64,000 bases of DNA from a virus (taxonomy: Duplodnaviria > Caudoviricetes). The notes below the pieces were generated by a model that was not told the origin of the DNA, searched no databases, and worked only from the letters and a program-made list of their open reading frames with translations. Positions 1,408 through 57,989 of this stretch are shown here, piece after piece (position 1 is the first letter of the stretch; every line of letters begins with the position of its first letter). The position numbers were made by a program, and so were the translations under genes. The stretch lies in the IMG/VR virus record IMGVR_UViG_3300035512_000144, positions 9,940-73,939 of that record; one strand, given 5' to 3'.

Positions 1408-1582
1408 CTTCACACCCCTTTCCACTCTCCAACATTGCAATACAGCCCTCAATGGTACTTACCGCCGACACATATCCTGTCGCGTAATCAGAGTTTCTAA
1501 AATACTGCGCCCTGTTCTTCATGTCTTTAATTTCCATTTTCAGAATTTCAATCGCTGTGTCGTATAGCATATTAGTCACCAT
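1394..1582 (-). CDS. Small phage hypothetical protein
   Basis: ORF overlaps both neighbours in operon fashion. Confidence 0.55.
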   Translation of the reverse strand: MVTNMLYDTAIEILKMEIKDMKNRAQYFRNSDYATGYVSAVSTIEGCIAMLESGKGCEDGET

Positions 1583-2306
1583 CGCTTTCTCTGCTTTTGA
1601 TAAAATCGTAAATGTTCATTTGTGCCATTTCTGCATCCAAACGCTCTTTTGACAGATTGTAGTAATATTCATCAAGTTCAAACCCGACAAACTTGTGATT
1701 AGTCCTGTGACACGCTATGAGACTGCTTGCGCTACCTACATGAGTGTCAAGGATAATATCATTTTCTTTCGCATAACGAGATAAAATCCATTCATACAAA
1801 ACAACTGGTTTTTGCGTTGGGTGTATGCGTTTTTCGTTCAATGATTTATTTCCCTGTTGCACAGTGCCTTCAGAAATGGATTTCCCTTGAAACATTCCAC
1901 GCCACATATACCGAAAAATATCAACACGATTATTCAAACTGCAGTATGCAATCTCACAGTCTGATTGGTCGGAACCGTCATTACACTTGTCCCAAACAAT
2001 ACGACCGCCAACTAGGGGATAGTCAAAGTAATTGCATCCGAAAATTATCTGATTTTTTGAAACCCTCATAAGTTCATCAAAATATGATTTGTCTGCCGGC
2101 TTGTTATCCCAACCCCTATTTTGATACTCTCCGTCTTTCACAAAAATCTTTGTACCGTTTTTCTGTTTTACATATCCGCTACGCTTTTTGCCTCCATGCT
2201 CTTTTATGCCATATTCAGGGTCTACAATCGCAAGGTCAAAGTATTTGTCCGGAAATTGTTTCATTCCCTCCATGCAATCCATGTTGTAATATCCAAAATC
2301 TAACAA
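1572..2306 (-). CDS. Orphan DNA methyltransferase (N6-A/N4-C, beta class)
   Basis: DCMEGMK, DLAIVDPEY (DPPY-like), HPTQKPV, ILDTHVGSASS, FVGFELD. Confidence 0.85.
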   Translation of the reverse strand: MLDFGYYNMDCMEGMKQFPDKYFDLAIVDPEYGIKEHGGKKRSGYVKQKNGTKIFVKDGEYQNRGWDNKPADKSYFDELMRVSKNQIIFGCNYFDYPLVGGRIVWDKCNDGSDQSDCEIAYCSLNNRVDIFRYMWRGMFQGKSISEGTVQQGNKSLNEKRIHPTQKPVVLYEWILSRYAKENDIILDTHVGSASSLIACHRTNHKFVGFELDEYYYNLSKERLDAEMAQMNIYDFIKSRESDGD

Positions 2307-2353
2307 TGTGTCACTCTCCCAAATAATCGCTTAATTCCATCTGACCGTCTTTT

Positions 2354-2647
2354 TCATTCAAGTTTCCTTCCGCACATCGGGCAGAAGTTAATCTCAAACG
2401 CGCCAGCACCACTGTTATCTCCGCAATTTGAGAAAATAAGTAAGTTCTTGCCGATTATTTCTCTTATGGAAATATAAAAATCTGTTTCGATAAGCGGTAA
2501 TCCTGCTTTAATATTTTTGCAAAAGTCGCATTCTTTTGTATAAATGGCACAATTTTCACTTCCCATATTTACACAAGTTCCAATTCCGTAATTAAAAACT
2601 AAATTTTGGTGTTTACAATCTTTACATTCTTTATACTCTATATTCAT
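2354..2647 (-). CDS. Cys-rich Zn-ribbon phage protein
   Basis: CKDCKH, CDFCK, INFCPMCGRKL. Confidence 0.6.
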   Translation of the reverse strand: MNIEYKECKDCKHQNLVFNYGIGTCVNMGSENCAIYTKECDFCKNIKAGLPLIETDFYISIREIIGKNLLIFSNCGDNSGAGAFEINFCPMCGRKLE

Positions 2648-2658
2648 TCAAATTTACC

Positions 2659-3036
2659 TCACCAACTCATATACAAGCATTCCAGCGGTACGTCCTCTGC
2701 CTGCTCATATATGCAATCTCTCAAACTTTCCAGTACACTTATTGCTCCGTGCAAAGTTCCCCAACCGTTATCCGGCTCATACTGCTCATATGCCTTGCTG
2801 TTCGTCCGCAGCTCCTTTATTCCGTGTTCAATCTTCGGTAACACTTCATCGCACCGATAATAGAAGGTGTGATATTTTCCGTTTTCTTCTTTTACTGATT
2901 GGTAATAATCCCAATCCATGCAAGCACGGAACATATTGCTAAGGTTATATGTCGGATGGTCGATTTCCGGCGTTGCGATCACTGGATATTTGTCACACCC
3001 CTCTGCCTTGACGTGTATCTGTAAATCGTAACTCAT
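2659..3036 (-). CDS. Phage hypothetical protein
   Basis: ORF with RBS; TYNL...YEPDNGWG motif. Confidence 0.65.
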   Translation of the reverse strand: MSYDLQIHVKAEGCDKYPVIATPEIDHPTYNLSNMFRACMDWDYYQSVKEENGKYHTFYYRCDEVLPKIEHGIKELRTNSKAYEQYEPDNGWGTLHGAISVLESLRDCIYEQAEDVPLECLYMSW

Positions 3037-3040
3037 GTAA

Positions 3041-3238
3041 TCACTTCCTCTCTATTGGTGGCTTGTCAAAAACTGCTTTCCAAGGTTCTAAAAAATATTC
3101 ACAATCCTTTGCATCCTTATCAACAATGATTGAATGTTCAAATATTCCGTCTAATGGTGTGCAGAAAATGTTTGCACCTCTTGAAATTGCAGACTCCTTG
3201 AAAACGCATTTGTTACATTTTTCGTTGAGAATAATCAT
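3041..3238 (-). CDS. Small Cys-containing hypothetical protein
   Basis: ORF with GGAGG RBS. Confidence 0.5.
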   Translation of the reverse strand: MIILNEKCNKCVFKESAISRGANIFCTPLDGIFEHSIIVDKDAKDCEYFLEPWKAVFDKPPIERK

Positions 3239-3278
3239 GTTTTCACCTCCTAAAACGGTACTTCCGACAAATCAACTG

Positions 3279-3746
3279 TCAATCTTTTACGACAATCATA
3301 TTTTTAATCAGTTTGGCGGTATTATTTACAGCCCTGTTAAGAATATCTGCATCAATTTCCAAGTCTCTGATTTCTCCGCTCCTTGCCATGCCTGCGCATA
3401 CACAATCGGCAATCATTTCAAGTACATCAATCAAATTCACATCATCGGGGCAATGTGATAACAAATGATGTCTCTCCGCTCTGATATGCAACTGATACCA
3501 TTCGCCATTTACAAAATCAGTACCGTTGTTAATCGTAGACAAGAAATTGTTGTAGAACATTCTTTCCTGCGATTTCTTTGTGTAATCGTGATTTTCTCCT
3601 GTGCTATCAATCATTTTTGACAATTCCAACATTACATTCTTTACATCTGAAATGTGCATATCATTAGCCTTTTGAAATTGTTCAAACGAAACATCTTTCG
3701 GTGCTGTTCTTGTATCTCCGTTTGGATTTTTCTTTATTTCTATCAT
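3279..3746 (-). CDS. HD-like hypothetical protein
   Basis: HDYTK, HH, DVLEMIADCV motifs; strong RBS. Confidence 0.55.
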   Translation of the reverse strand: MIEIKKNPNGDTRTAPKDVSFEQFQKANDMHISDVKNVMLELSKMIDSTGENHDYTKKSQERMFYNNFLSTINNGTDFVNGEWYQLHIRAERHHLLSHCPDDVNLIDVLEMIADCVCAGMARSGEIRDLEIDADILNRAVNNTAKLIKNMIVVKD

Positions 3747-3759
3747 TTTGTTTTCCTCC

Positions 3760-4452
3760 TTAAAATGGAATTTCGCTCAAATCAACTGTCAGCCCTCGTT
3801 CTGCGACATACACATTTGCGTTTCCTACGACTTTTTTGACATCTGCTATACATTTACTAGGTATCGTTGTTTCTGCCCCTAAATGAACCAATATCACGTT
3901 CCTAGCACGTTTGGTTATGTTGTCGCTAAGAAACTGCTTGCAATAGTCTAGGCTTGAATGACCGCGCACTTTGTGTTCAAAGTTCGCCAAATCCTTGTCA
4001 ACCATTTCTTTCTGATAGTTGCATTCCACAATGAAATGATTGATTTCCAGTTTGGAAAAATTGTATCTGCAAAATTCATAGTCCGTCATGTATAAGATTT
4101 TCTGACCGTCAATCTGAATAAAAAAGCCATAATTCGTAGTGTTGTTATGTGGTAGTTCAAAACCTTTCACGTAGAATTTCCCAAACTTACCATCAATCAG
4201 CTTTCCATCTGTCAGATACGGTGCAAATATTTGTATTCCCATCTTCTGAAAGTCTGCTAAACTTTTTGAGTGGTCTAGGTGCTCATGAGTCACAAGCACC
4301 GCTTTCACCTTTGAGACATCAAAGTTCAATCCCTTTTTAATCTCCTTGATATGTATGCCGCAATCAAGTATTAGGGTTTCTGTGTCGCAGGATAGCAGAT
4401 AGCAGTTTCCGTTTGAACCACTGGAAAGTGTTTTTAATGTAAGCATTATCAC
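3760..4452 (-). CDS. Metallo-beta-lactamase-fold hydrolase
   Basis: SSGSNGNCY, ILDCG, THEHLDH, VECNY, GHSS, LVHL. Confidence 0.85.
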   Translation of the reverse strand: MIMLTLKTLSSGSNGNCYLLSCDTETLILDCGIHIKEIKKGLNFDVSKVKAVLVTHEHLDHSKSLADFQKMGIQIFAPYLTDGKLIDGKFGKFYVKGFELPHNNTTNYGFFIQIDGQKILYMTDYEFCRYNFSKLEINHFIVECNYQKEMVDKDLANFEHKVRGHSSLDYCKQFLSDNITKRARNVILVHLGAETTIPSKCIADVKKVVGNANVYVAERGLTVDLSEIPF

Positions 4453-4476
4453 ACCTCGTTTTCCACATTTCGCTTA

Positions 4477-4698
4477 TTATCCTTTATATAACCTTTTAAC
4501 CGCATCTCCATCAATCGGCGTAACCGCATTCACTAATCGTCCTTTGGTTTTTTCGTATTCTTCTCCCCAAATATCAATTCCAGAATTGGCGCACCAATTA
4601 TCAACCTCTATTTCTAATTTGCGTGCCTTCGATACCGATTCGTTTTGTTGCCTTATTTTATTTTGTATATATTGTGGTAGTTCCATATAGCACCTCAC
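4477..4698 (-). CDS. Hypothetical protein
   Basis: ORF in operon. Confidence 0.5.
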   Translation of the reverse strand: MRCYMELPQYIQNKIRQQNESVSKARKLEIEVDNWCANSGIDIWGEEYEKTKGRLVNAVTPIDGDAVKRLYKG

Positions 4699-5090
4699 TT
4701 TCCGAAAAATGTTTCTCTCACGTTTACTGGTCTTGCTTTCATAGCGTACTCGATATCAATTGGCGGTCGTTTTGACGGACAGCAGATAAAGTCGCTACAC
4801 ACTTTTGGCTTAATGCTATAGATGGTACATTTATGATTAGGCTTGCTATCGTCCAGAAACGGACAACACATATCCAAAACAGGCTGTGCAAGTGGTATTG
4901 CTACACCATGCTTGCACTCCTTGATATGGTGTAGCTTTATGTATTTGCGGATCGCGGTTATTTCCTCGTCTGTCAGCGGAATATATACGGAACAACAATT
5001 CCCACATTCCGTACACTTCCCATTGTCAGTCAAATCGTAAGTGCCGTTGTTAAAATCATTCAGCATTTCTGCTATGCTTGCAGTTTTCAT
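4695..5090 (-). CDS. YkgJ/CxxCxxCC Fe-S or Zn cluster protein
   Basis: CTECGNCC, CCPFLD, CTIY..KPKVC. Confidence 0.8.
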   Translation of the reverse strand: MKTASIAEMLNDFNNGTYDLTDNGKCTECGNCCSVYIPLTDEEITAIRKYIKLHHIKECKHGVAIPLAQPVLDMCCPFLDDSKPNHKCTIYSIKPKVCSDFICCPSKRPPIDIEYAMKARPVNVRETFFGK

Positions 5091-5093
5091 ACG

Positions 5094-5468
5094 CTACACC
5101 TCGATTTCTTCGTCCTGCGGAAACTGAAAGACAGAATTAAACTGCTCAACTTTTGATTGTTTCCCATCTGTAGCTACTGAAATAATTGCAGGCTCTCCGT
5201 TGTTAAAAAGTTTCTGAAGTTGCTCGTAAAAATCCTCTGAAACATCTACGTTGTTCATAATAACTTTTCCAACATAACATCTCCGCAGCATTTCCATAGC
5301 CTTGATTGCTTTTTCTTCGGTGGAATATTCAGCCAACGTCAAATAATCATCTCCAACTAACGTATCAAACACAATAATTTGATTATGATTTTTATACGAT
5401 ATTACTATATATGATTTTTCATAAGGAATATCATTTTTCCCATTTTGGCTTATCACCCTCATACTCAA
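5094..5468 (-). CDS. Phage hypothetical protein
   Basis: ORF in operon; LAEYSTEEKAIKAMEML. Confidence 0.6.
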   Translation of the reverse strand: MSMRVISQNGKNDIPYEKSYIVISYKNHNQIIVFDTLVGDDYLTLAEYSTEEKAIKAMEMLRRCYVGKVIMNNVDVSEDFYEQLQKLFNNGEPAIISVATDGKQSKVEQFNSVFQFPQDEEIEV

Positions 5469-6334
5469 TCCTCCCCAACATCTGCCACAACGAAATCTTC
5501 CTTGTTGGCGTTCTCAACAATTTCAGCTTCAACTGTTTCCTGCACATCAACTACATTGTCAACATATGTAGGTTCTCCGTTCTCATTGATAACCGCCATA
5601 TCGTTAGTCATAGCCGTCTGCAAGTCGATACTCATAATTCCCCACTTATTTATAAGCTGCCGGATAAGTGTCTTTTTAGCCATATCGTCAAAATTCTTAC
5701 TCCAAAATGTGTACTTTGTCTTATTTCTGACATCACTACGATATCCGCTAGAGAAAGTTGTTGCGTGTTTCTCCATCTTTTCTTTTGACCAGTACAATTC
5801 TTTACGGAAGCCATTTACAAGTTCAAACATTGCGTAGTAACCTAAGACTTGAAGTTTCTCTCTTTTCTCAAAATCCATGACAGGCTCCAAGATAAATTCT
5901 TCCGTGATTGGGTTATACGATTTAAGTTCGCCCTCTTTCACCTCTGATACCGCAATCTTGCGATACTGACCACTACGGATAGCCAACTGGATATATCCCT
6001 TATAGCCAATCTGAAACTGTGCGTCTTTGCCTTTTGTGTCCTTGTTGTTATAAGGAACCATGTAATATTGTCCTAACTGCGGACTAGGCGTAAGATTTAA
6101 CGCTTCACCAAGCAAAGCAGCGGATAAGATACTACCGTTTGAGCATTCTGCAAGTGTCGGATTAGTCTGTACCGCAGATACAACGCTTGAAATAAATCTC
6201 GTTGTATTCTTCTCACCAACAACATTTGCAATGTTTGTCTTTACAGCAGGATTTCCGAGATAACTTGCAATCCCGGTTTTCTGCTGTGTTTTAGTCACTG
6301 TTCCGCTTGTTTTTGTTGATACCTCATTTGCCAT
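5465..6334 (-). CDS. recT: RecT-family single-strand annealing recombinase
   Basis: SAALLGEALNL, YMVPY, AQFQIGYKGYIQLAIRSG, MAKKTLIRQL. Confidence 0.9.
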   Translation of the reverse strand: MANEVSTKTSGTVTKTQQKTGIASYLGNPAVKTNIANVVGEKNTTRFISSVVSAVQTNPTLAECSNGSILSAALLGEALNLTPSPQLGQYYMVPYNNKDTKGKDAQFQIGYKGYIQLAIRSGQYRKIAVSEVKEGELKSYNPITEEFILEPVMDFEKREKLQVLGYYAMFELVNGFRKELYWSKEKMEKHATTFSSGYRSDVRNKTKYTFWSKNFDDMAKKTLIRQLINKWGIMSIDLQTAMTNDMAVINENGEPTYVDNVVDVQETVEAEIVENANKEDFVVADVGED

Positions 6335-6361
6335 AAATCATTCCTCGCTTTCTTTATTTTT

Positions 6362-6574
6362 TTACAAAAGCCCTTTATTCAAATCTGAAAGACTCATCAT
6401 AATTCCGTCTGCTTTTCCATTTGCAAGATATTCTTCCTTGTCAATAAAGCACAGCTTTGAATTGTTAATGTCCTCTTTATTCACAGCAATTCCAAAAATC
6501 AATCCGTCATTTTGCATTTGCGACTTCATGAATCCGATTGTTGCTTGCAGCATAAATTTAGCATCGTCCGTCAT
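6362..6574 (-). CDS. Hypothetical protein
   Basis: ORF in operon. Confidence 0.55.
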   Translation of the reverse strand: MTDDAKFMLQATIGFMKSQMQNDGLIFGIAVNKEDINNSKLCFIDKEEYLANGKADGIMMSLSDLNKGLL

Positions 6575-7005
6575 GGTTCCACCTCACTTAAAAGCTGTTC
6601 TACAATCTGCTTGCATTGGTCTATGCAGAAATCCAATGTACGGACTGTATTTTCTGAATTTCCAAATTGGAAATAACCAGTTTTTTCTAGCGTCAAAATA
6701 GTTTTCATAGTTTCATCATCTTCCGCATACAGTTTCTTTGCAGTTTCAACATCATATCCGTCACAATAATGTGTGCAATCAAAACCTATCCACCATACGT
6801 CTTTATCAGTTTGACAGTGTAATTCTCTTTCGCTGTATGTAAGACCACAATGACAAGAAATAGGGATTTTATCATAAGACTTCCCGTAATACTTGTGGCT
6901 TTTTGGCAGCCCTACATATCCGCACCGATAACCCATGTACATGAACAATACAACACATGGAAATCCTTTGTATTCAAATTTTGTTTCCTGCACAGGATTA
7001 AACAT
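6571..7005 (-). CDS. Phage hypothetical protein
   Basis: RCGYVGLP, HCGLTY, WWIGFDC.H motif. Confidence 0.65.
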   Translation of the reverse strand: MFNPVQETKFEYKGFPCVVLFMYMGYRCGYVGLPKSHKYYGKSYDKIPISCHCGLTYSERELHCQTDKDVWWIGFDCTHYCDGYDVETAKKLYAEDDETMKTILTLEKTGYFQFGNSENTVRTLDFCIDQCKQIVEQLLSEVEP

Positions 7006-8928
7006 CTACTCCACCTCCTTAACAATCAATTCCTTGTCATTCGTCCTGCGAATCATTATCACCTGTCTGTCAGTTTCGGGTATCTTGTCCAAATCAATAC
7101 TTTCAGTGTCCTCAATAATGATTGGCAGATTCACGCCGTAAGCATTTTGGAAACCTAAGCAGATATCAATCTCCGCAAGAATGCGGTTGCCGTGATTCAG
7201 ATTTCTGTAATAACTCTCGCCGTCAATCTTAGGTTCACATACAAGGTTTGTGTTGCCATTGATAAGAGTCTCAAATAGGTCAAACTGTATGTACTGGAAA
7301 GCACCGTTAATATCCTGTTCAAGCAGCTTGTTTTTAGTCTTTTCAAATTCCGATAAGTAGTAAAGTATCTGCTCCTGGTCTGCAATCTCCTGCGCAATCT
7401 TGCGCTGTTCCGTTTGTAATTCCGCGATCCGTTCATCAATCGCCGTGTTGTTTTCAGATTTTGCAATCTGCTTTTCAACCGTACTTAACTGTTCGCGGAT
7501 AGATTCTTCCTCTGACTGCAATTTCTCTCGGATTTCAGAAAATGAATTGCTTTCCTGCAAAAACTTTTCTTTATCGGCAATCTGCCGATTCAGTTCCGCG
7601 ATATCTGCACGGTCTGAAAGGTCTACTGACTGCGGAAGTGCTGCTAATTGATTTTCAAGGTCTGCAATAGCTGTATTAAGCATTTCAAGGCTTTTCTTAT
7701 GTTCTGCAAGTTCCAGTTCAAGTGTTCTCGATTTTTCTTGTTCAACCTCAATCTCAGATTTCAGACGCTTTCCTTTTTCTTCAATGGTTTTCAATTCTTC
7801 TGCCTTGTGGCTTTCAAATTCTGCCCTTAATTCGTCTTGTTTCTCTTTTGGGTATTCTTGTCCACAATACGAACAAACAAGGCTGTTTTCGTCAAATTCA
7901 AGTCTCTGTGTCTCTTTGTACTTTCCACGTAAATTTGAAATGTTTACTCGGTAACTTTCAATTTTGAAAATTGAATTTGAAATGTCATTTTCCGTATCTG
8001 AAATTATGTCCTGCGTCTGTTGCAAAAGAAATTTCTTGTTACCAATTAAGCGTTCTATTTCCTGTCTTGCTTTGATATTTTCCTCATTCGCCTGTCGCAC
8101 CAAATCGTTGACCTTGAATTTCAGTTCCAGTATTCCGTCACTTGCCTTGTCGATTTCCGCAAGCTGCGCAGATAAATCGTCCTGCTTTGACTTGACCTCT
8201 GCAAGTTGTTCTTTCAGTGCGTTTCGCGCAAGTTCCAATTCTGCAACGTCAATTTCCTCGCGTTTTTCTTCGTTTTCTTTGATTGCTCCAACGATTTCAT
8301 TTAATCTTTGCTCATATCCGACAACGTTTCTTGTCTTACTGCCGTGAATTTTGTCATTACACGTTTGTTTTATCTGCGCAACTGTTCCAAATTCTAATTC
8401 TGACCTTATAGGCTCAAATTCTGGAAACATATCAACAATTTCAGCGTTCTTTCTATTTCCAAAAACCTTTTCAATCAAATCTCTGCGTTTGGCAGCATCT
8501 AATTTGAAAAACGTCTGCGGATTCACGCATGATTCATTTGGAAACATATTTTTTAAATGTTCCGCATATTCTTTTGGTTTTTGAACAATTCCATTGATAT
8601 AGCAGCTTGTGACATAACCCTGTGGCTCATTCTTTCGGTTGTATGCCATTCCGTAGGATTTCTTTAACATAACTCCGTTATCAAGTTCCAGTTCAACTTC
8701 TGTTGGCACGTTATCGTCAATAATGTCTTTTCCGTCCTTGTCATGCGGGCGTATGCCTGTGATTTCCTTGCCGTTCTCGTCTTTCAGATTAAAAATCCAG
8801 TAGATAGCACGCTTTATGGTGCTTTTACCTGTCTCGTTGTGTCCTGCGATTTCTGTCCTATCAAACAGGTCTGTTTCCAGTGACCGGTGCTTGCAGAAAT
8901 TTGTCAGCCTTATGTGTTTGATTTTCAT
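7006..8928 (-). CDS. SMC/Rad50-like coiled-coil ATPase
   Basis: N-terminal Walker A GHNETGKST, long coiled coil with CSYC hook, C-terminal LN.G...IIIED.ESID. Confidence 0.85.
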   Translation of the reverse strand: MKIKHIRLTNFCKHRSLETDLFDRTEIAGHNETGKSTIKRAIYWIFNLKDENGKEITGIRPHDKDGKDIIDDNVPTEVELELDNGVMLKKSYGMAYNRKNEPQGYVTSCYINGIVQKPKEYAEHLKNMFPNESCVNPQTFFKLDAAKRRDLIEKVFGNRKNAEIVDMFPEFEPIRSELEFGTVAQIKQTCNDKIHGSKTRNVVGYEQRLNEIVGAIKENEEKREEIDVAELELARNALKEQLAEVKSKQDDLSAQLAEIDKASDGILELKFKVNDLVRQANEENIKARQEIERLIGNKKFLLQQTQDIISDTENDISNSIFKIESYRVNISNLRGKYKETQRLEFDENSLVCSYCGQEYPKEKQDELRAEFESHKAEELKTIEEKGKRLKSEIEVEQEKSRTLELELAEHKKSLEMLNTAIADLENQLAALPQSVDLSDRADIAELNRQIADKEKFLQESNSFSEIREKLQSEEESIREQLSTVEKQIAKSENNTAIDERIAELQTEQRKIAQEIADQEQILYYLSEFEKTKNKLLEQDINGAFQYIQFDLFETLINGNTNLVCEPKIDGESYYRNLNHGNRILAEIDICLGFQNAYGVNLPIIIEDTESIDLDKIPETDRQVIMIRRTNDKELIVKEVE

Positions 8929-9177
8929 TGACTTTCTCCCTCCTTTTCAATCTCACTCCTAAACCGCGCATCTAACATAGAAAACAATAATGCGTGCGCT
9001 GTTTGGAACATCACATGATTCAGTTCCTTGTCCTGAATGGCGAACATCATGGTAGCCGCCTGTAAAAATAACGCGCTGTCACCCTTGTTGCGGTTCTGCT
9101 TTCTGTCCATCATATAAAGGTCATATATCGGACTGTCTTTGATTCTCTGTGCAAAATCTTCCATGTTTGTGTTCATT
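8925..9177 (-). CDS. Hypothetical protein
   Basis: ORF with RBS AAGGAG. Confidence 0.55.
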
Positions 9178-9224
9178 GACTTTTCTCCTTTCAACTTGGA
9201 CGGTCATTCGCCCCATAAAATCAT

Positions 9225-10322
9225 TTATTCAGTTTTCAACAGGTTTACAGCTCGTTTGATTTCCTCTTCCGTAATGAGTGCTGACTGGAAGCGTATAAGT
9301 TTCTGACCATCGTTTGACTTAAAAAGCCCATCTCCGTTTCCTCTAAGTGTTTCAGCCCCATTTGAGCCAAGAATCATCCGACTGTTAAGCTTATCTACCG
9401 TTGCAAATCCGGCGCGGCATTGGAAGTTGCTTTTCAGCATTCCAGATATCACTTCCGCTTCAGGTCTTTGCGTTGATAAGATAACGTGGATTCCGCTTGC
9501 CCTTGCCTTTGCCGTAAGTCTTGATACATCATCCACAACCTTGTCTCCCTCCGATAAAATAAGGTCTGCCATTTCCTCAATATAGACCACGATCCGCGGT
9601 AGCTTGCCTTTTACGCTTGCGTTATATGAAGCAATATCTCGGCACTTATTCTTTGCAAATAATTCATATCGCAAGTCCATTTCCTCACACAGAATTTCAA
9701 GCTTTTTCCGCGCCGTCTTACTTTCCGTGATAATACTGGAAACTTGCGGAACACCCTTATAAAATCCAAATTCAACCGTTTTCGGGTCTATCAGAATCAG
9801 CTTCAAATCTTCCTTTGAGTATTGAAGTAAAAGCGATAACACGATATTGTGTGCAAATACCGACTTTCCGCTACCAGTTTGACCACCGATAAGAAAATGT
9901 GGCATAGTCGCAAGGTCATATGTTATTCCGCTACCGTCTAATGCTTCTCCGATTGATATAAACAATCCTTCCTTGTAGTTTTCAATCTTATTTAATTCCT
10001 CAATACAATCTGCAAATCCGTATGTTCCGCGTTCATTGTTTGGGACTTCAATGCACACATACTTTCCGTCCTGCGCAATCCTGCAACCATTCGTATTAAA
10101 TATGGAATTAAACTCACGAACCTTTCCGAGAAGAAATTTGATATAGTGCGGTTTAACTTCCACGTCATATCTTGTTGCAGCCGTTCCGCAATAGATTCCT
10201 TTTACATCCGCGTCAATGAACAACTGACTTTGGAATATCCGTTCCAAATCTTCCTTGTTCATGACCGTTTCTTCATGCTTAACCGAATGATTAAAGCAAT
10301 CTAAAAATTTACTGTCTATCAT
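9225..10322 (-). CDS. FtsK/SpoIIIE-like ATPase (alpha/beta motor only; no TM anchor, no gamma domain)
   Basis: MPHFLIGGQTGSGKS, LILIDPK, RIVVYIEEMADL, ARASGIHVILSTQRP, GAETLRGNGDGL. Confidence 0.85.
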   Translation of the reverse strand: MIDSKFLDCFNHSVKHEETVMNKEDLERIFQSQLFIDADVKGIYCGTAATRYDVEVKPHYIKFLLGKVREFNSIFNTNGCRIAQDGKYVCIEVPNNERGTYGFADCIEELNKIENYKEGLFISIGEALDGSGITYDLATMPHFLIGGQTGSGKSVFAHNIVLSLLLQYSKEDLKLILIDPKTVEFGFYKGVPQVSSIITESKTARKKLEILCEEMDLRYELFAKNKCRDIASYNASVKGKLPRIVVYIEEMADLILSEGDKVVDDVSRLTAKARASGIHVILSTQRPEAEVISGMLKSNFQCRAGFATVDKLNSRMILGSNGAETLRGNGDGLFKSNDGQKLIRFQSALITEEEIKRAVNLLKTE

Positions 10323-10662
10323 TCTGATTTTCTCCTATCTGATATTTATTCATATCTAAATATGCTTCACGAGCATTTCTGTATAAGTCACCACGTTCCT
10401 GCTTAATGAATTGCAGAATCAACATATCCGATTCCCATACAGAATTATTGGGATTTTTGTTGTCACAATACTCCATCAACTTTTCATCCAATTTTGTTAT
10501 GTCTATTCTGACCGAACCGCTTATTCTGTATAAAGCCCCTGCATCATTTGCCAGTTCTGATATAACCTTTTTGGACAACTTATATCTGATTTCGCAATCA
10601 TCAAGTGTCGCAAATTTTACTATGCTATTGTCTTTTGGCTTAAATCTTCGTTTTGCTTTCAT
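10309..10662 (-). CDS. Small DNA-binding (excisionase/HTH-like) protein
   Basis: RYKLSKKVISELANDAGALYRISGSVRID resembles Xis-like wHTH; start moved to MKAKRR (RBS AAGGA) because the longer ORF runs through the repeat array. Confidence 0.55.
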   Translation of the reverse strand: MKAKRRFKPKDNSIVKFATLDDCEIRYKLSKKVISELANDAGALYRISGSVRIDITKLDEKLMEYCDNKNPNNSVWESDMLILQFIKQERGDLYRNAREAYLDMNKYQIGENQNDRQ

Positions 10663-10700
10663 GTCAAACATCCTTAATATTGGTGTGCTTGTGTCGGCGC

Positions 10701-10995
10701 TTTCGATTACCTTGATAATCCGTATGGGTATCGTACAATGGTGGAATGAAGATTGCAGACATTGTCGCTCGATATCCTTTATAAATCTTAATGGTCTCAT
10801 ACACACAGAAAAACCACTATGCACCTACTTCGATACCCTTATCATTTCGTATAGGTGTCTACCTCTGTATGGTATCTGGCACAATGCAAATACCGTTCGA
10901 TACCCTTGTGAAATCGTATGGGTCTCATCCACTTTTGTTTTGAACAATACAATATTCTAGTTCGATACCCTTGTGAAATCGTATGGGTCTCATCC
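10701..10995 (-). CRISPR. Degenerate CRISPR-like mini-array 1: five 36-bp repeats, four spacers
   Basis: Repeats at 10701, 10767, 10828, 10895, 10960. The last two are identical (GTTCGATACCCTTGTGAAATCGTATGGGTCTCATCC, + strand); the others are 26-27/36 identical. Spacers are 30, 25, 31 and 29 bp. Confidence 0.85.
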
Positions 10996-11135
10996 CTCAA
11001 GAAACATCTGTTCTGTTTTTATACCCTTACTTAACAAGGTATATGCGTAGACGGTTTCTATCAGCCATATAGACTAATCACTAGACGTTTTCCGCATAAG
11101 TTTTGAGTTTTACCTCTTAGGACAATCGTTTGCCC
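10996..11135 (-). ncRNA. Putative tracr/omega-like scaffold RNA, copy 1
   Basis: Non-coding, between effector stop and first repeat; blockwise homologous to 12736-12872; 5' hairpin GGGCAA-ACGA-TTGTCC; contains ATACCTTGT complementary to repeat ACAAGGGTAT. Confidence 0.65.
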
Positions 11136-11145
11136 TTCTTCAATT

Positions 11146-12525
11146 TTATTTCAGCGCAAGATACATCTCTCTTGCGTATCTCTGCCTATAATCATTTTCC
11201 GACCTGTCGATATCTTTTATTTTCAGCTTTACCACAGTACCGCTATCAGCAGATGCTAACTTTGTTTCTATCAGCGTTACCAACATAGCAGGAGCATTAT
11301 GACCGACTGAATATCCTGCTTTGCTTTTCTTTTCATTTTCATTCTCAGTCTCTTTCTTCCGCATTGCCGCCGCTTGAAAGGGATAATCGTTGACCATAAT
11401 CATATTTCCATGAGACAAAATCTCATTTGCGATCGCGATTCTTTCCAGTTTTCGATTTTCGGCTTGTACCCGGTGCAAATCTCGCAACTCTGCAACCGCC
11501 TTGTGATATCCGTTTGAAAAATTCCATTTCAGCCGATAACGATTACCGTCAAAATAAATGCCTTTCTTACAAGTGCCATCCTCGTTGAAATTTTCGGGAT
11601 TCATAGCGCGTCTTGAATTGTCAAGGTACTGTTGTAAGGCTTTTATTTTCGTGTCATAGTAAATGTCTGTATCTGTATCTTCAAGGCTTATATCCGTAAA
11701 GGTTTCACCGTCTGACGTGTAGACCACATGAGACGTATCAATATACATTCCAACCTTGCCTTTATTGATAGGATTCTTTTCGTTGCCGTCCTTGTCATAC
11801 TTGGTGACAGGTGCTTTATCAATCGTTATCTGAACGTACCATTTCAATGTTCCACGGACTTCTTTATTGATAATGCGCACCTGTTTATATGATTCCAAAT
11901 CAAGCATTTCCAGTTTGTAATAGTCTTTCGGGTCTAACTTCAACGGCATTTTGATTGTCTTGCCATGTGCCGTACTGTAAACGCAATACAGTTTCCTGCC
12001 GTTTGCGTTCCCTCTGACCTTTTCCCAATCATCATCAACAATGCGTATTCCGCTTTTACCCTGTGAAACCATGGAATACCATTCGCCTTTACGCTTAAAC
12101 TTTATCTGTCTGCCACTTCCGAAAAAGTAATCATCAAATGCCGCCCACATAGCAGGTGCAATCGTGTTTCCTGCGACCTCACTCGGAATATTCATATTGA
12201 AATGTTTATAGAAACTCGTTGTGTCTCCGACAAATCCCATCTTGGAAAATCTGTACTCTTTCATAAGGTCATTCTTCGTCTGACACGCCGCCTTGAAATC
12301 AGCGTCTTTCTTTCTCTCCGCAGGCTCCATGTTTTTGTACGCATTAGCGATAACTTCCTTCGCTTGCTTGTATTCGGGTCTACGTTCCATTTCCCTAAGT
12401 TTCTTCAACTCATATCCCAACATGGAATTGTAAATTTGTCGGCAAATCTCAAACCGCTTTACAAGTGCGTCTGACTGCCATTTCTCTGTTTTTAGTGGGA
12501 TTGTGACTACACTCATTGCTCCCAT
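11146..12525 (-). CDS. TnpB/Cas12f-like RNA-guided protein, probably nuclease-dead
   Basis: TnpB-like N-terminus (RQIYNSML), WED strand KWYVQITID, RuvC-I position VGMYIDT, bridge helix LDNSRRAMNP, RuvC-II position MVNDY, APAMLVTLIETKL; C-terminal Zn finger/RuvC-III absent. Confidence 0.8.
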   Translation of the reverse strand: MGAMSVVTIPLKTEKWQSDALVKRFEICRQIYNSMLGYELKKLREMERRPEYKQAKEVIANAYKNMEPAERKKDADFKAACQTKNDLMKEYRFSKMGFVGDTTSFYKHFNMNIPSEVAGNTIAPAMWAAFDDYFFGSGRQIKFKRKGEWYSMVSQGKSGIRIVDDDWEKVRGNANGRKLYCVYSTAHGKTIKMPLKLDPKDYYKLEMLDLESYKQVRIINKEVRGTLKWYVQITIDKAPVTKYDKDGNEKNPINKGKVGMYIDTSHVVYTSDGETFTDISLEDTDTDIYYDTKIKALQQYLDNSRRAMNPENFNEDGTCKKGIYFDGNRYRLKWNFSNGYHKAVAELRDLHRVQAENRKLERIAIANEILSHGNMIMVNDYPFQAAAMRKKETENENEKKSKAGYSVGHNAPAMLVTLIETKLASADSGTVVKLKIKDIDRSENDYRQRYAREMYLALK

Positions 12526-12567
12526 TGTTTTCTCCTTCTTTCATTTACTATCCGAGACGTGGATGTG

Positions 12568-12735
12568 GCTCGATATCCTTACAAAATAAGATACCTCTCG
12601 TACTCCGTCTACAAGCTTATAACATAACTGATAGTTCGATACCCTTGTCAAAAGATATCTTTCTCGTACAATGGTATGCCATAAATCCGAGTGATACCGG
12701 TTCGATACACTTGTGAAAATCTATACCTCTCGCAC
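12568..12735 (-). CRISPR. Degenerate CRISPR-like mini-array 2: three 36-bp repeats, two 30-bp spacers
   Basis: Repeats at 12568, 12634, 12700 (exact 66-bp period), 23-27/36 identical to the array-1 consensus, sharing the GTTCGATACCCTT end. Confidence 0.8.
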
Positions 12736-12872
12736 CTCAAAGCACGTCTGTTCGATTTCGAGATATCCAGTTTACAAGGTGCTAGGTAGACGGCTTCTTC
12801 CATGCGTATAGCATAGACACTGACCGTTTTCCCATTGCGTTTTGCATTTCTGCTTCGGTCAATCGTTTGACC
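12736..12872 (-). ncRNA. Putative tracr/omega-like scaffold RNA, copy 2
   Basis: Homologous to 10996-11135; 5' hairpin GGTCAA-ACGA-TTGACC; directly abuts the first repeat. Confidence 0.65.
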
Positions 12873-12880
12873 GCTATAAT

Positions 12881-13204: not shown

Positions 13205-13382
13205 TATTTTTGTCACCTCTCCTGCTCTTGATGTAGTCGCAAGTGTCAAATATGCTCATTACAAGCCAATACACACAGGCAAACGCCCATGCACACTTGG
13301 CTGTCGTGCCATCTAATACCGCCACATTCATAGCACTCAAAATCGCGATTGCATAACCGCCAATAATCTTCACTACTTCCAT
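13197..13382 (-). CDS. Small membrane protein
   Basis: Two hydrophobic segments. Confidence 0.55.
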   Translation of the reverse strand: MEVVKIIGGYAIAILSAMNVAVLDGTTAKCAWAFACVYWLVMSIFDTCDYIKSRRGDKNNE

Positions 13383-13990
13383 TACCCTGTTTCCTCCAAT
13401 TCTTCCAAAATTCCTACCGACATTTCATAAGCTGTTCGCGTTTCAGACACTCCGTTGTCCAGTGCTTTCAGATACTCCCTTGACTGCATTCTCCCAAATG
13501 TTGTCAGTTGATATCCCACTGGACATTCTGATATGTACCTCGCGTTCCTGCCCCATGCGATACACGGTATATAATCACTTCTGTTGTATTTCCTCCGCAC
13601 AGCTAACAGAAAATCGCAAATTTCTCTTCCGCTAGGGGATAGTCTGTATACTGGTTGAGTTACAATGCGACCGCGCAACATTGACTGGTTTTCCAAATAC
13701 AGAACATTTACCGTCTCAATACATTGTGCGAAAATGTAAACTTTCAAATGCCTGTCTGCATCTCTCCATGTGCGTATTTCCCCAGTAACAACTACATAAT
13801 CGCCGCGCGATGCTTGCGCTCTTAACCGCTCTGATACAATCACACAGACTGTGTCAATCGCTCCGCTGCTGCGCATTGATTCAACGTAAAAGCTGTAAAA
13901 ATTCTCGCCGCGGTTCGTGTCGTACAATTCCATGCCGGATATGGTTTCACCGCCAAACACTATATGGTTGTTATCGCTCATGCCCCTCAT
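13382..13990 (-). CDS. ssb: Single-stranded DNA-binding protein (tandem OB)
   Basis: VTGEIRT, LAVRRKYNRSDYIPCIAWGRNA, FGRMQSREY, RTAYEMSV. Confidence 0.85.
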   Translation of the reverse strand: MRGMSDNNHIVFGGETISGMELYDTNRGENFYSFYVESMRSSGAIDTVCVIVSERLRAQASRGDYVVVTGEIRTWRDADRHLKVYIFAQCIETVNVLYLENQSMLRGRIVTQPVYRLSPSGREICDFLLAVRRKYNRSDYIPCIAWGRNARYISECPVGYQLTTFGRMQSREYLKALDNGVSETRTAYEMSVGILEELEETG

Positions 13991-14421
13991 TCACCTCTCC
14001 AACGATTTTTCCATCGTTAATCTCAAATGACATTCCGAGATTGTAGTGAATAACCTCTAAATCCTCCAGTGACATCTTGTTAAAATCTGTAATAATCATT
14101 TCCTTTTCTCCCTCCTAAACTTGTCTAACATCTTGGTTTTTCCAGTTTATTTGTTGATAACTTTCAAATAAAACTCTGTTTCTTCAATCAGCATCCAGTC
14201 ATTAGCTTTCAGACTGTACGCTGATAAGCATTCTTTCTGACTCCTGGTCAGTCTCTTTGTCTGTTTCATCACTTCTTACCGCTTGAAATGATTATTGCAA
14301 TGATTACCAACACAACAACCAGTAACATCACAGCGAAAATCGCCGCGGCAAATCCCGCCCAAAACGCATTCACATACACATCAATCACCTTCCTCTCTCA
14401 CAATGTCCTTTACTCCGTCAA

Positions 14422-14853
14422 TCACCCTTTCGCGTCCACGTACTGCACAAAGCATCTGCCGCCTGTCAGTTTCATCCACTCGACACATTCCTCATATGTC
14501 GGAAAATATATGTCAATGCACTTGCCGGATTCGATACTCCCGATGCCGTCACCGTCAGCATCACCTCCAAATCCAGTATCAAGACATTCAAAAATCCCTA
14601 ACAGTTCGCCGATTTCTCCGTCATTATTCGCATAGACAAGTGCCGTCATGCCTAGCTTGTCCTGTGCCACCGCGCATATGCCTTTTCTGACCGCTGTGCC
14701 TGTTGCCGTAGTCGTTCCTTGGCAATAGGCTATCGTGTGCATCTTGATTACTTCCGGCTCCTGTTCCTCCGCATATGATGTGCTGGTGCATATAATAAGA
14801 AGAAACAAGACTAATGCTCCGGCGATTTTACAAGTTAATCTATGCGTTTTCAT
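14422..14853 (-). CDS. Secreted/membrane 3D-domain (MltA-like) protein
   Basis: Signal-like N-terminus, IAYC..TTTATG, ECLDTG, CIDIY. Confidence 0.7.
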   Translation of the reverse strand: MKTHRLTCKIAGALVLFLLIICTSTSYAEEQEPEVIKMHTIAYCQGTTTATGTAVRKGICAVAQDKLGMTALVYANNDGEIGELLGIFECLDTGFGGDADGDGIGSIESGKCIDIYFPTYEECVEWMKLTGGRCFVQYVDAKG

Positions 14854-15566
14854 GTCTCGCTCCTTTGCAACAGCTTCCTAATTCCATCAACGCCCTTTTG
14901 GTAGACAAGCGTTTTAATGCTGATACATTCCTCGCCGTTCCTCTGATAGTGCTGTTCGATTACGTTAAACCAACCATTGTCAACGTACTTCTGATACGGC
15001 TGATTCCTTGTGTCAAGCACCTTGGCATTTCGCAGGAACTCAAACAAGTGGTTGCGACCATATCCTTTTATACCCAGTGCCTTTGCGACTTCCTGCATGG
15101 AAATTGCGTCCTTACTTCCGGCTACTGCGTCAAAAAATTCTGCCTTTGGATGCATTTCCTTGTTTTCAAGTGTCAGTCTTTCATTGTCCTCTACCGTTAC
15201 AAGAAGTTGTTGCAGTGCCTCCTTGTATGTCTGTGGCAAGTGGTAGCCGCCTATCTTGCGGATAGACGGTAGAACTTCGCTTGTTACCCAATGCTTAAAC
15301 TTCTTTGCATTCGGCAATTTGCTACCGAGAACCAATCCATATAGCCCCGATTCGTTTATCAGCAACGTGTTTCTGTTTTGCGTTCCGTCAAACAATGGAA
15401 CAATACGCCTGTCCTCTTCATCGGTATGCCGTTCAATATCTCGACTACCGTTTTGGTACTCCAGCTTTTCTGTTATGTCTTTGCCAATAAACCAAACGTC
15501 ATTGTCAATCGTTACTGTTCGTATTTCTCCAAACTCTTCATTACTGAATATCTGTAATTCGTGCAT
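14850..15566 (-). CDS. BRO-N / KilA-C phage antirepressor
   Basis: FSNEEFGEIRT, INESGLY, AKKFKHWVTSEVLPSIRK, PKAEFFD, TLVYQKG. Confidence 0.9.
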   Translation of the reverse strand: MHELQIFSNEEFGEIRTVTIDNDVWFIGKDITEKLEYQNGSRDIERHTDEEDRRIVPLFDGTQNRNTLLINESGLYGLVLGSKLPNAKKFKHWVTSEVLPSIRKIGGYHLPQTYKEALQQLLVTVEDNERLTLENKEMHPKAEFFDAVAGSKDAISMQEVAKALGIKGYGRNHLFEFLRNAKVLDTRNQPYQKYVDNGWFNVIEQHYQRNGEECISIKTLVYQKGVDGIRKLLQRSET

Positions 15567-20814: not shown

Positions 20815-21171
20815 TTATGCGTTCATTTCCAGTTCCATAATCCGAAGGTCAAGTTCTGTGATTGTCTGCTCTGCCTCCATGATAGCGATATCCTGTGCTG
20901 TGATTTCCTGCTCCGTGGCTACAATGCCCGGCGTGAATCTATCCTCATACCGGCTGTGATGGTCAATCACATACCAGTCATAGCATCTGCCGTCTGCGCC
21001 TTCCTCTGACCGATATTTTTCCAAAACGTCAAAGTTGTCCGTTATGTGACTGTCTGCATACTTCCTTGTGATTGACACGCCTCCTGTTAGGTTTGAATGT
21101 TCCTCCCCAACGGTTTTCAAGTTTTCCATCCTCACGCCATTACGCCGCACTGTCCCGAAGATGTAATCCAT
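20815..21171 (-). CDS. Hypothetical protein with C-terminal coiled coil (XkdW-like position)
   Basis: QEITAQDIAIMEAEQTITELDLRIMELE precedes XkdX. Confidence 0.6.
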   Translation of the reverse strand: MDYIFGTVRRNGVRMENLKTVGEEHSNLTGGVSITRKYADSHITDNFDVLEKYRSEEGADGRCYDWYVIDHHSRYEDRFTPGIVATEQEITAQDIAIMEAEQTITELDLRIMELEMNA

Positions 21172-22232
21172 TTTTTAATCGCCTCCTTGTAATAGTCGCG
21201 CACGATCTTCTTTAGCTGCCTTTGCGTATGTTTCTTCACAAAGTTTGCATAAAGATGTACGCTGTTGCAATGTTTCAACGCACCAAGCCTTGATAACAGA
21301 CCTTGTGCGAATTTCACTGGTACGAGTCTGCCACATTCTCTCATGCGGTAGTACCGTTTCAGATGTTGTTTCAACCGCAGAAGTGTTTTCTTTCTCAGGA
21401 GTGTATACCCTTTGCCAAATCTATATCCGAGCGCATTCGGCATTCTCTTTGATGTCCTGAATTTCTGCCAGTTCCCTTTCAACTCCAGTTCATGTTCTCC
21501 GAGCCATGCGCTAACAAGGGCAATGATTTTGCCTGCTGTTCTCTTGCGGTTTGTGAAAACAGTAAAGTTGTCCATATACCTTATATAATGTGTCGCGCCG
21601 TTTTCTCTGATAAGCTGGTCAAGCGGCTGCAAGACTGTGTTTGCAAACCACTGTGAGCAATATGCGCCTATCATAATCCCGTCCTTGATGATACGTTCAA
21701 TCAAATCCAAGGTTCTGAAATCCTTGATAAGCTGTTTCATGCGTTTCATAACTATTTCCGGTTTCAGACTATCGTAGAAATGGCGTATGTCCATCTCAAT
21801 GCAATATTTCATGCCTTTTCCGCGTTTCATCCACTTCTTGATGCCATTAGCGCCGTAAATCGTGCCGCGTTTCTTGATGCTCCCGCAACACCACTTGTCC
21901 ATGCCTCGCATAAATATTGGTTCTAACACTTGTATCAGTGCATGATGAACACATTGGTCGGGAAACATTTTAGGTTCGCATATCTCCCGCCACTTTTCAG
22001 CGTTCATGTCATACCTTTTCTTTTTGATGACAGGGGACGGCTCAAATCCATTCACCAACAATTCGTATAATTCATGTACTCTTTCGTCCATGGTATTTTC
22101 CAACCATATGACGGTCTTATTCGGTTTGTCGGGAAAATGAACCCATCTGTGCGAATTGCATACCGTCTGTATCGCTTTCCTTAGATTTTCTTCTGAAATT
22201 ATCTTTGTAAATAAATGATTAGCACGTTTCAT
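21132..22232 (-). CDS. DGR reverse transcriptase
   Basis: K.REI..P, DQCVHHA, MDIRHFYDS, GIMIGAYCSQWFAN, YIRYMDNF, LGY; adjacent TR/VR pair. Confidence 0.92.
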   Translation of the reverse strand: MKRANHLFTKIISEENLRKAIQTVCNSHRWVHFPDKPNKTVIWLENTMDERVHELYELLVNGFEPSPVIKKKRYDMNAEKWREICEPKMFPDQCVHHALIQVLEPIFMRGMDKWCCGSIKKRGTIYGANGIKKWMKRGKGMKYCIEMDIRHFYDSLKPEIVMKRMKQLIKDFRTLDLIERIIKDGIMIGAYCSQWFANTVLQPLDQLIRENGATHYIRYMDNFTVFTNRKRTAGKIIALVSAWLGEHELELKGNWQKFRTSKRMPNALGYRFGKGYTLLRKKTLLRLKQHLKRYYRMRECGRLVPVKFAQGLLSRLGALKHCNSVHLYANFVKKHTQRQLKKIVRDYYKEAIKKWITSSGQCGVMA

Positions 22233-22414
22233 TGATATGCCATCTCCTTTTGACCTAACGACCTTTCCCACGCCATTTCTGGGGTACTAAGCCGTTCCAT
22301 ATCGGCACTATCTTCACCGTGTGGTGTGCGGTTTCTGCACCTATATAAAAACGCTTCAGATGTAAGCGTAATTACTGAAATAATTGGATGTGCAATCCGA
22401 TTTTAAAAGGGGTT

Positions 22415-57904: not shown

Positions 57905-57970
57905 TAGCCGAAACGGTCATTCGTGACCGTCAGCCGAGGGATAGCCGCCCGGCTCTGATGATGGCAGGCT
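57905..57970 (+). ncRNA. Type II hammerhead ribozyme
   Basis: GCC-GAAAC-GGTCA ttcg TGACC-GTC / AGCCG..CGGCT-CTGATGA-TGGC: all core motifs and three stems present. Confidence 0.8.
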
Positions 57971-57989
57971 GAAAATGGAGGTAAAAAGA

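Follow-up and report, generated by a model that had tools for sequence, protein, structure and literature searches.

The DNA analysed here, hereafter called the window, is a stretch of 64,000 nucleotides (positions 9,940 to 73,939) of the phage record IMGVR_UViG_3300035512_000144, which measures 73,939 bp and is rated 100% complete by CheckV. Our subject is an effector gene at 11146-12525 on the minus strand, which encodes a 459-residue protein of predicted TnpB/Cas12 fold devoid of the catalytic Asp-Glu-Asp (D-E-D) triad, together with two structured RNA scaffolds, one on either side of the gene, each followed by an array of CRISPR type. A first-pass annotation, made from the letters of the DNA, had described the open reading frame (ORF) as otherwise intact and preceded by a ribosome-binding site. 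This was borne out: the frame is uninterrupted, and the Shine-Dalgarno box AGGAG (12532-12536, minus strand) lies 6 nt 5′ of the ATG.

Profile libraries identified the effector by sequence as a distant TnpB. It was matched by NCBIfam guided_TnpB (E-value 1.4e-9, profile positions 5-332 of 389) with 37.8 bits, which is under the family cut-off of 100 bits, and by the 'transposase' family PHROG 506 (E-value 4.9e-20). From Pfam, HTH_OrfB_IS605 alone was found, below threshold, and phmmer against the PDB retrieved nothing meaningful. A word-indexed search gave 161 relatives and a full HMMER scan 1179 cluster representatives; alignment and tree were built with 234 full-length relatives, of which 81 have the D-E-D residues at the three RuvC positions. 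One D-E-D relative (locus L020; BLASTP 36% identity, E-value 1e-61) sits directly after an IS200-like Y1 TnpA (E-value 1.2e-37) and is therefore a true IS605 TnpB; homology to it places the effector in the TnpB/Cas12 superfamily. An AlphaFold2 model obtained from 141 sequences has a mean predicted local distance difference test score of 94.7. The best 46 Foldseek matches to this model are all TnpB, Cas12 or Fanzor chains, with Cas12m2 on top (E-value 3.8e-12). In the model the bilobed WED-REC-RuvC architecture of the superfamily is present and the whole TnpB fold is retained.

Replacement of the RuvC triad

The catalytic columns were set by alignment with the 81 D-E-D relatives. They hold Y261 (codon 11743-11745) in place of the RuvC-I Asp, N379 (11389-11391) in place of the RuvC-II Glu and Q448 (11182-11184) in place of the RuvC-III Asp, all on the minus strand. 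The columns were rechecked in two ways: by pairwise BLASTP with the L020 relative, in which Y261 faces its Asp and N379 its Glu, and by aligning the family profile to the solved RdCas12n (9j09, E-value 3.6e-5), in which the three columns fall on the RuvC-I, II and III motifs. The family profile also aligns to ISDra2 TnpB. The earlier claim that all three catalytic positions are lost is thereby confirmed, including its readings of RuvC-I as VGMYIDT (codons 258-264, 11754-11734) and of RuvC-II as MVNDY (11397-11383) and its statement that the RuvC-III Asp is missing.

According to the sequences compared, the loss of D-E-D is clade-wide and not private to this phage. In a FastTree phylogeny of 234 sequences the effector falls inside a clade of 124 members (support 0.996) which contains no D-E-D member at all, and within it in a sub-clade of 99 members (support 0.984). 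Position 261 is Tyr in 86 and Phe in 13 of these 99, and Asn at 379 is invariant (99/99), so the replacement of the triad is not a matter of chance; position 448 is variable inside the clade. Compared with the active relatives, the dead clade has moreover lost some 23 residues from the stretch that joins the last RuvC strand to RuvC-III (median 14 vs 37) and about 48 residues of C-terminal tail (11 vs 59). The end of the effector, which had been placed about 45 residues past the APAMLVTLIETKL stretch (APAML), lies 36 residues past it. The absence of a CxxC zinc finger was noted correctly, and its use as a sign of lost catalysis was mistaken: since none of the 81 active relatives carries two CxxC motifs, the absence is ancestral and not diagnostic.

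The first-pass annotation had cautioned that the Asp two residues downstream of the RuvC-I column, D263 (codon 11737-11739), might substitute for the lost one. The caution was fair, as this position is acidic in 87% of the sub-clade. In its extended form, it would mean that D263, D380 and D440, perhaps with N379, make up a rearranged active site which still cuts DNA or processes precursor CRISPR RNA (pre-crRNA). The three positions flank the lost ones and are acidic in 87%, 85% and 89% of the sub-clade against 0%, 27% and 11% of the active relatives, the trio occurs together in 72 of the 99 members, N379 is invariant, and rearranged RuvC sites have been described in other TnpB clades (PMC10691335). 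Nevertheless, these positions are Trp, Asp and Leu in a sister lineage that belongs to the same all-dead clade, the closest orthologue has Gln at 440, and one sub-lineage has Lys or Asn at 380. The aromatic residue at 261 is unable to bind metal, and the segment before RuvC-III has lost its 23 or so residues. Cas12m, for its part, keeps two Asp and yet does not cut double-stranded DNA (PMC10442227). A conserved rearranged catalytic site is thus unlikely.

The ratio of nonsynonymous to synonymous substitution rates (dN/dS) across orthologues, proposed earlier as a check, was 0.055-0.075 against orthologues at 83-88% identity (0.055 for the one at 88% and 0.066 for the one at 83%, with dS above 1.2). 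Strong purifying selection therefore acts on the gene, which is not in decay. A transposon TnpB falling apart without function, which the missing triad and C-terminal part could bring to mind, is refuted by these values and retains practically no probability; the length is also constant (about 460 residues in 99 cluster representatives), N379 is invariant and the fold model is confident.

Guide-RNA scaffolds, arrays and proposed function

The upstream scaffold (12736-12876, minus strand) is a predicted tracr/omega-like RNA with an anti-repeat and was found by our covariance model R1 with 172.9 bits over 12700-12876. It leads a mini-array (12568-12735, minus strand) of three 36-nt repeats at 12700-12735, 12634-12669 and 12568-12603, separated by 30-nt spacers at 12670-12699 and 12604-12633. 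The downstream scaffold (10996-11139, minus strand; R1, 176.8 bits over 10960-11139) begins just past the stop codon of the effector and leads an array (10701-10995, minus strand) of five 36-nt repeats at 10960-10995, 10895-10930, 10828-10863, 10767-10802 and 10701-10736, with spacers of 25-31 nt; the first two repeats are identical and the distal ones degenerate. The period in the two arrays is 61-67 nt. The scaffolds are paralogues of about 145 nt with 66% identity, each lying 5′ of its array on the gene strand.

A consensus derived from eight scaffolds, those of the window and of the loci of close homologues, has 36 base pairs, 20 of them with compensatory changes. In the RNAalifold consensus, scaffold columns 109-117, the anti-repeat, pair with repeat columns 190-198, which lie in the 3′ half of the first repeat, its conserved part. 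Computation thus predicts an RNA resembling the trans-activating CRISPR RNA (tracrRNA) of type V systems, and a Cas12-type effector adjoining regular repeats with unique spacers is a further feature of that type. The covariance model detected the scaffold at every dead-clade locus examined, among them L001 and L003, two loci on Butyrivibrio chromosomes; in L016 and L017 it detected a third copy. Similar arrays were observed at about nine further loci (L004-L007, L016, L017, L053-L056): those of 65-66-nt period adjoin homologues at 85%, 83%, 88%, 73% and 50% identity, and also accompany the more distant members L053, L054 and L055 and the sister dead lineage L056. A simple array detector found none at L018-L051, which are mostly 24-36% identical relatives, the triad having been checked in L020 only.

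Across orthologous loci the scaffolds are 78-84% identical while the spacers agree at random level (median 33%). The number of repeat units also varies, and L016 has five identical repeats. Conserved scaffolds with unrelated spacers indicate a CRISPR array with spacer replacement and not a fixed guide. Four results together give good support to the idea that the gene is selected for something other than canonical cutting: the low dN/dS, the all-dead clade of 124 members, the kept fold, and a structured scaffold with CRISPR-like arrays that co-evolves with the effector gene. The suggestion of selection for binding without cutting, made in the first-pass annotation, is therefore upheld as regards the absence of canonical cutting, and binding would be the likely counterpart.

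Two observations were made on the arrays themselves. In either array the final repeat runs up to the ribosome-binding site of the gene that follows (12538-12603 for the effector and 10671-10736 for the DUF6462 gene described below); it may be speculated that effector bound to this repeat in the transcript affects translation of that gene. The spacers 12670-12699 and 10864-10894, from different arrays, both start with GGTAT and have ATACCAT about 14 nt further on, an internal inverted repeat which resembles the repeat core. A promoter and terminator scan of the sequence returned matches at the level of shuffled controls.

We consider it probable, at roughly 0.6, that the effector is a TnpB-derived Cas12-like protein which has lost canonical RuvC catalysis and supplies the protein for a type V-like CRISPR locus, effector-only and carried by the phage, that serves guided binding without cutting. 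Both cassettes would be transcribed on the gene strand, the structured scaffold first and then the repeat-spacer units, and the scaffold's anti-repeat would form a helix with the repeats through their conserved 3′ half. The effector would bind the scaffold-led pre-crRNA, be led by it to complementary DNA, form an R-loop and remain there without cutting, so that its occupancy would block transcription or replication of the target in the manner of CRISPR interference (CRISPRi). Silencing by occupancy has been shown experimentally for Cas12m, Cas12c and TldR (PMC10442227, PMC11013384, bioRxiv 10.1101/2023.11.30.569447). Competing mobile elements or host genes are the likely targets, since the spacers turn over between related phages.

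Several results weigh against this interpretation, the acidic trio around the lost positions being one of them. The repeats of the window are degenerate (64-100% identity), and part of the units may be fossil. No protospacer was found in the phage itself, allowing up to 7 mismatches, nor in GenBank phages or plasmids. A search of 401 Lachnospiraceae genomes with the spacers gave matches at noise level only, and the recurrent matches of spacer D4 in these genomes fall in unrelated genes. In 88 Butyrivibrio genomes, with three candidates scored per genome, the lone match was a homologue of the effector gene itself. The related phage records G402 and G403 contained no spacer match, the cross-matching of 24 spacers against all fetched loci gave none, and a candidate guide of the Butyrivibrio locus L003 had no convincing match in its own genome. 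Since no protospacer was found in the phage, GenBank phages, plasmids or sampled genomes, neither a protospacer-adjacent motif nor a target can be named.

The same surveys bear on another explanation, according to which the dead effector is an anti-CRISPR decoy that titrates away crRNA or tracrRNA belonging to a type V system of the host. A phage-encoded Cas9 with dead RuvC has been proposed to act so (PMC11656645), and an AcrVA2-like gene lies near one homologue. The phage has its own scaffolds and arrays with unique spacers, though, and a search for arrays built of these repeats gave nothing above noise in the 401 Lachnospiraceae genomes sampled, and in the 88 Butyrivibrio genomes nothing beyond the one match inside the effector gene. 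We regard a decoy as very improbable.

Relation to known systems

In its way of working the effector is most like TldR and Cas12m and is a member of neither. It shares with TldR (bioRxiv 10.1101/2023.11.30.569447, 10.64898/2026.09.22.753285) the TnpB origin, the degraded RuvC, the truncated C-terminus and the kept fold, as well as a guide RNA encoded beside the gene, and some TldR clades are phage-borne. TldR, however, directs a single fixed guide at a host promoter that is conserved, and has fliC or oppF as its partner gene, whereas here two scaffold-led arrays hold several spacers which differ between related phages, the searches above gave no host match, and the neighbours are DUF6462, FtsK-like and SSB genes. 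Cas12m of type V-M (PMC10442227, PMC11013384) is likewise array-associated, binds double-stranded DNA uncut and resides on mobile elements, often without an adaptation module. Unlike Cas12m, the effector has no TNB domain and its locus has a tracr-like scaffold. Moreover, phmmer and two family profiles retrieved no Cas12m chain at E-value limits of 1 to 10 from a PDB set in which such chains are present; the likeness to Cas12m is thus one of modelled fold only.

Other natural or related systems differ more. The dCas12f or sigma-factor-associated dead TnpB (PMC13472631, PMC10691335) works with an adjacent extracytoplasmic function (ECF) sigma factor and has lost the CRISPR array, whereas this phage has arrays and no Sigma70_r2 match. 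[quoted passage not shown] Unlike IS200/IS605 TnpB, for which ISDra2 TnpB (8exa) and the L020 relative stand as examples, the effector lacks D-E-D, and the complete phage has no Y1 TnpA and no IS200/IS605 or IS607 transposon context; such TnpB proteins have one omega RNA, here replaced by arrays. Cas12r of the Thermus Lalka phages (bioRxiv 10.64898/2026.04.20.719267) is another effector that derives from TnpB and is encoded by phages; its short array, made of degenerate repeats, lies among replication genes, and no adaptation module is reported for it. As described there, it differs in its length of 564 residues, an active RuvC for which D238 is needed and the use of crRNA only.

Since the 2025 CRISPR classification counts about 50 independent transitions from TnpB to type V with repeated RuvC inactivation (PMC12669027), the effector would represent a lineage that is new in itself while the kind of system is familiar. 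We put forward only tentatively, and with more doubt than confidence, that it belongs to an undescribed effector-only type V-like lineage of at least 124 cluster representatives in Lachnospiraceae phages and mobile elements, marked by a dead Cas12 of 460 residues, as many as three arrays per locus, each led by a scaffold, and a turnover of spacers without adaptation genes of its own. No description of this lineage was found in the literature searched, and published TnpB trees may already contain it as an unnamed V-U or inactivated branch. If it is indeed such a lineage, this would imply an unknown route of spacer gain and RNA-guided silencing as a phage weapon, in one sub-lineage possibly coupled to the DUF6462 protein and an FtsK-type DNA pump.

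Natural dead RNA-guided proteins such as TldR, Cas12m, Cas12k and dCas12f show that guidance without cutting has evolved repeatedly. To these the lineage adds a compact case of 459 residues between two known routes, resembling TldR in coming straight from the IS605 TnpB branch and CRISPR systems in its multi-spacer arrays and tracr-like scaffold. Complete phages without adaptation genes whose spacers nonetheless differ raise the question of how spacers are replaced and what the phage silences. CRISPRi could also profit from such a protein, a small dCas12 of natural origin with a defined scaffold, as a chassis.

Neighbouring genes

Directly 3′ of the downstream array lies a DUF6462 gene (10309-10662, minus strand), and its stop is overlapped by the gene of a soluble FtsK/SpoIIIE-type ATPase (9225-10322, minus strand). 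DUF6462 keeps this position in four close phage loci (the window, L006, L016 and L017). In L016, where the DUF6462-ATPase pair is located at 2371-3988, and in L017, where it is located at 1137-2762, the ATPase gene is followed by a third scaffold cassette, in L017 with its own array at about 2727-2958, and this places the pair inside the guide-RNA locus. In the window, the interval 8925-9226, right after the FtsK-like stop, contains the first scaffold stem-loop only (R1, E-value 0.35), the remainder being replaced by an ORF of 89 codons; the single stem-loop looks like a remnant of the third cassette of L016 and L017.

This arrangement would suit a module in which the guided dead effector recruits the DUF6462 protein and the FtsK-type ATPase, much as Cas12k recruits Tn7 proteins. 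The pair follows the downstream array in all four loci just named and is enclosed by the third cassette in two of them, but it is absent beside distant members which carry scaffolds and arrays (L001, L003, L004, L053, L054 and L055), and in the window the third cassette is down to one stem-loop. We consider partner recruitment an unlikely account of the effector, and guided binding without cutting is preferred.

With respect to adaptation, no cas1 was found in the phage, and for cas2 there was one sub-threshold match of 13 bits, which is not credible. The adaptation module of type V is thus absent, as it also is from many V-U, V-M and V-K loci.

The locus lies in an early replication/recombination block (1572-8928 and 13382-15566), which encodes a DNA methylase, a metallo-beta-lactamase-fold protein, RecT, an AAA ATPase, SSB and a Bro-N/KilAC antirepressor. 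The genomic context reported for Cas12r of the Thermus phages resembles this block. Among the loci of relatives, L005 has an IS200-like Y1 transposase (117-497; in L004, 1-384) about 900 nt 5′ of a dead-clade effector with arrays on both sides, which may reflect the transposon origin or be due to chance. The AcrVA2-like gene mentioned above lies at 5647-6741 of L055, about 1.2 kb 3′ of an effector of the dead clade and of the accompanying array, which has some seven repeats. Elsewhere in the window, at 21132-22326, a reverse-transcriptase gene (RVT_1) is overlapped at its start by an RT-18 RNA (Rfam, 75.8 bits), and the two probably form a diversity-generating retroelement. A type II hammerhead ribozyme (Rfam, 51.6 bits) was found at 57906-57973 on the plus strand, while the genes are almost all on the minus strand.
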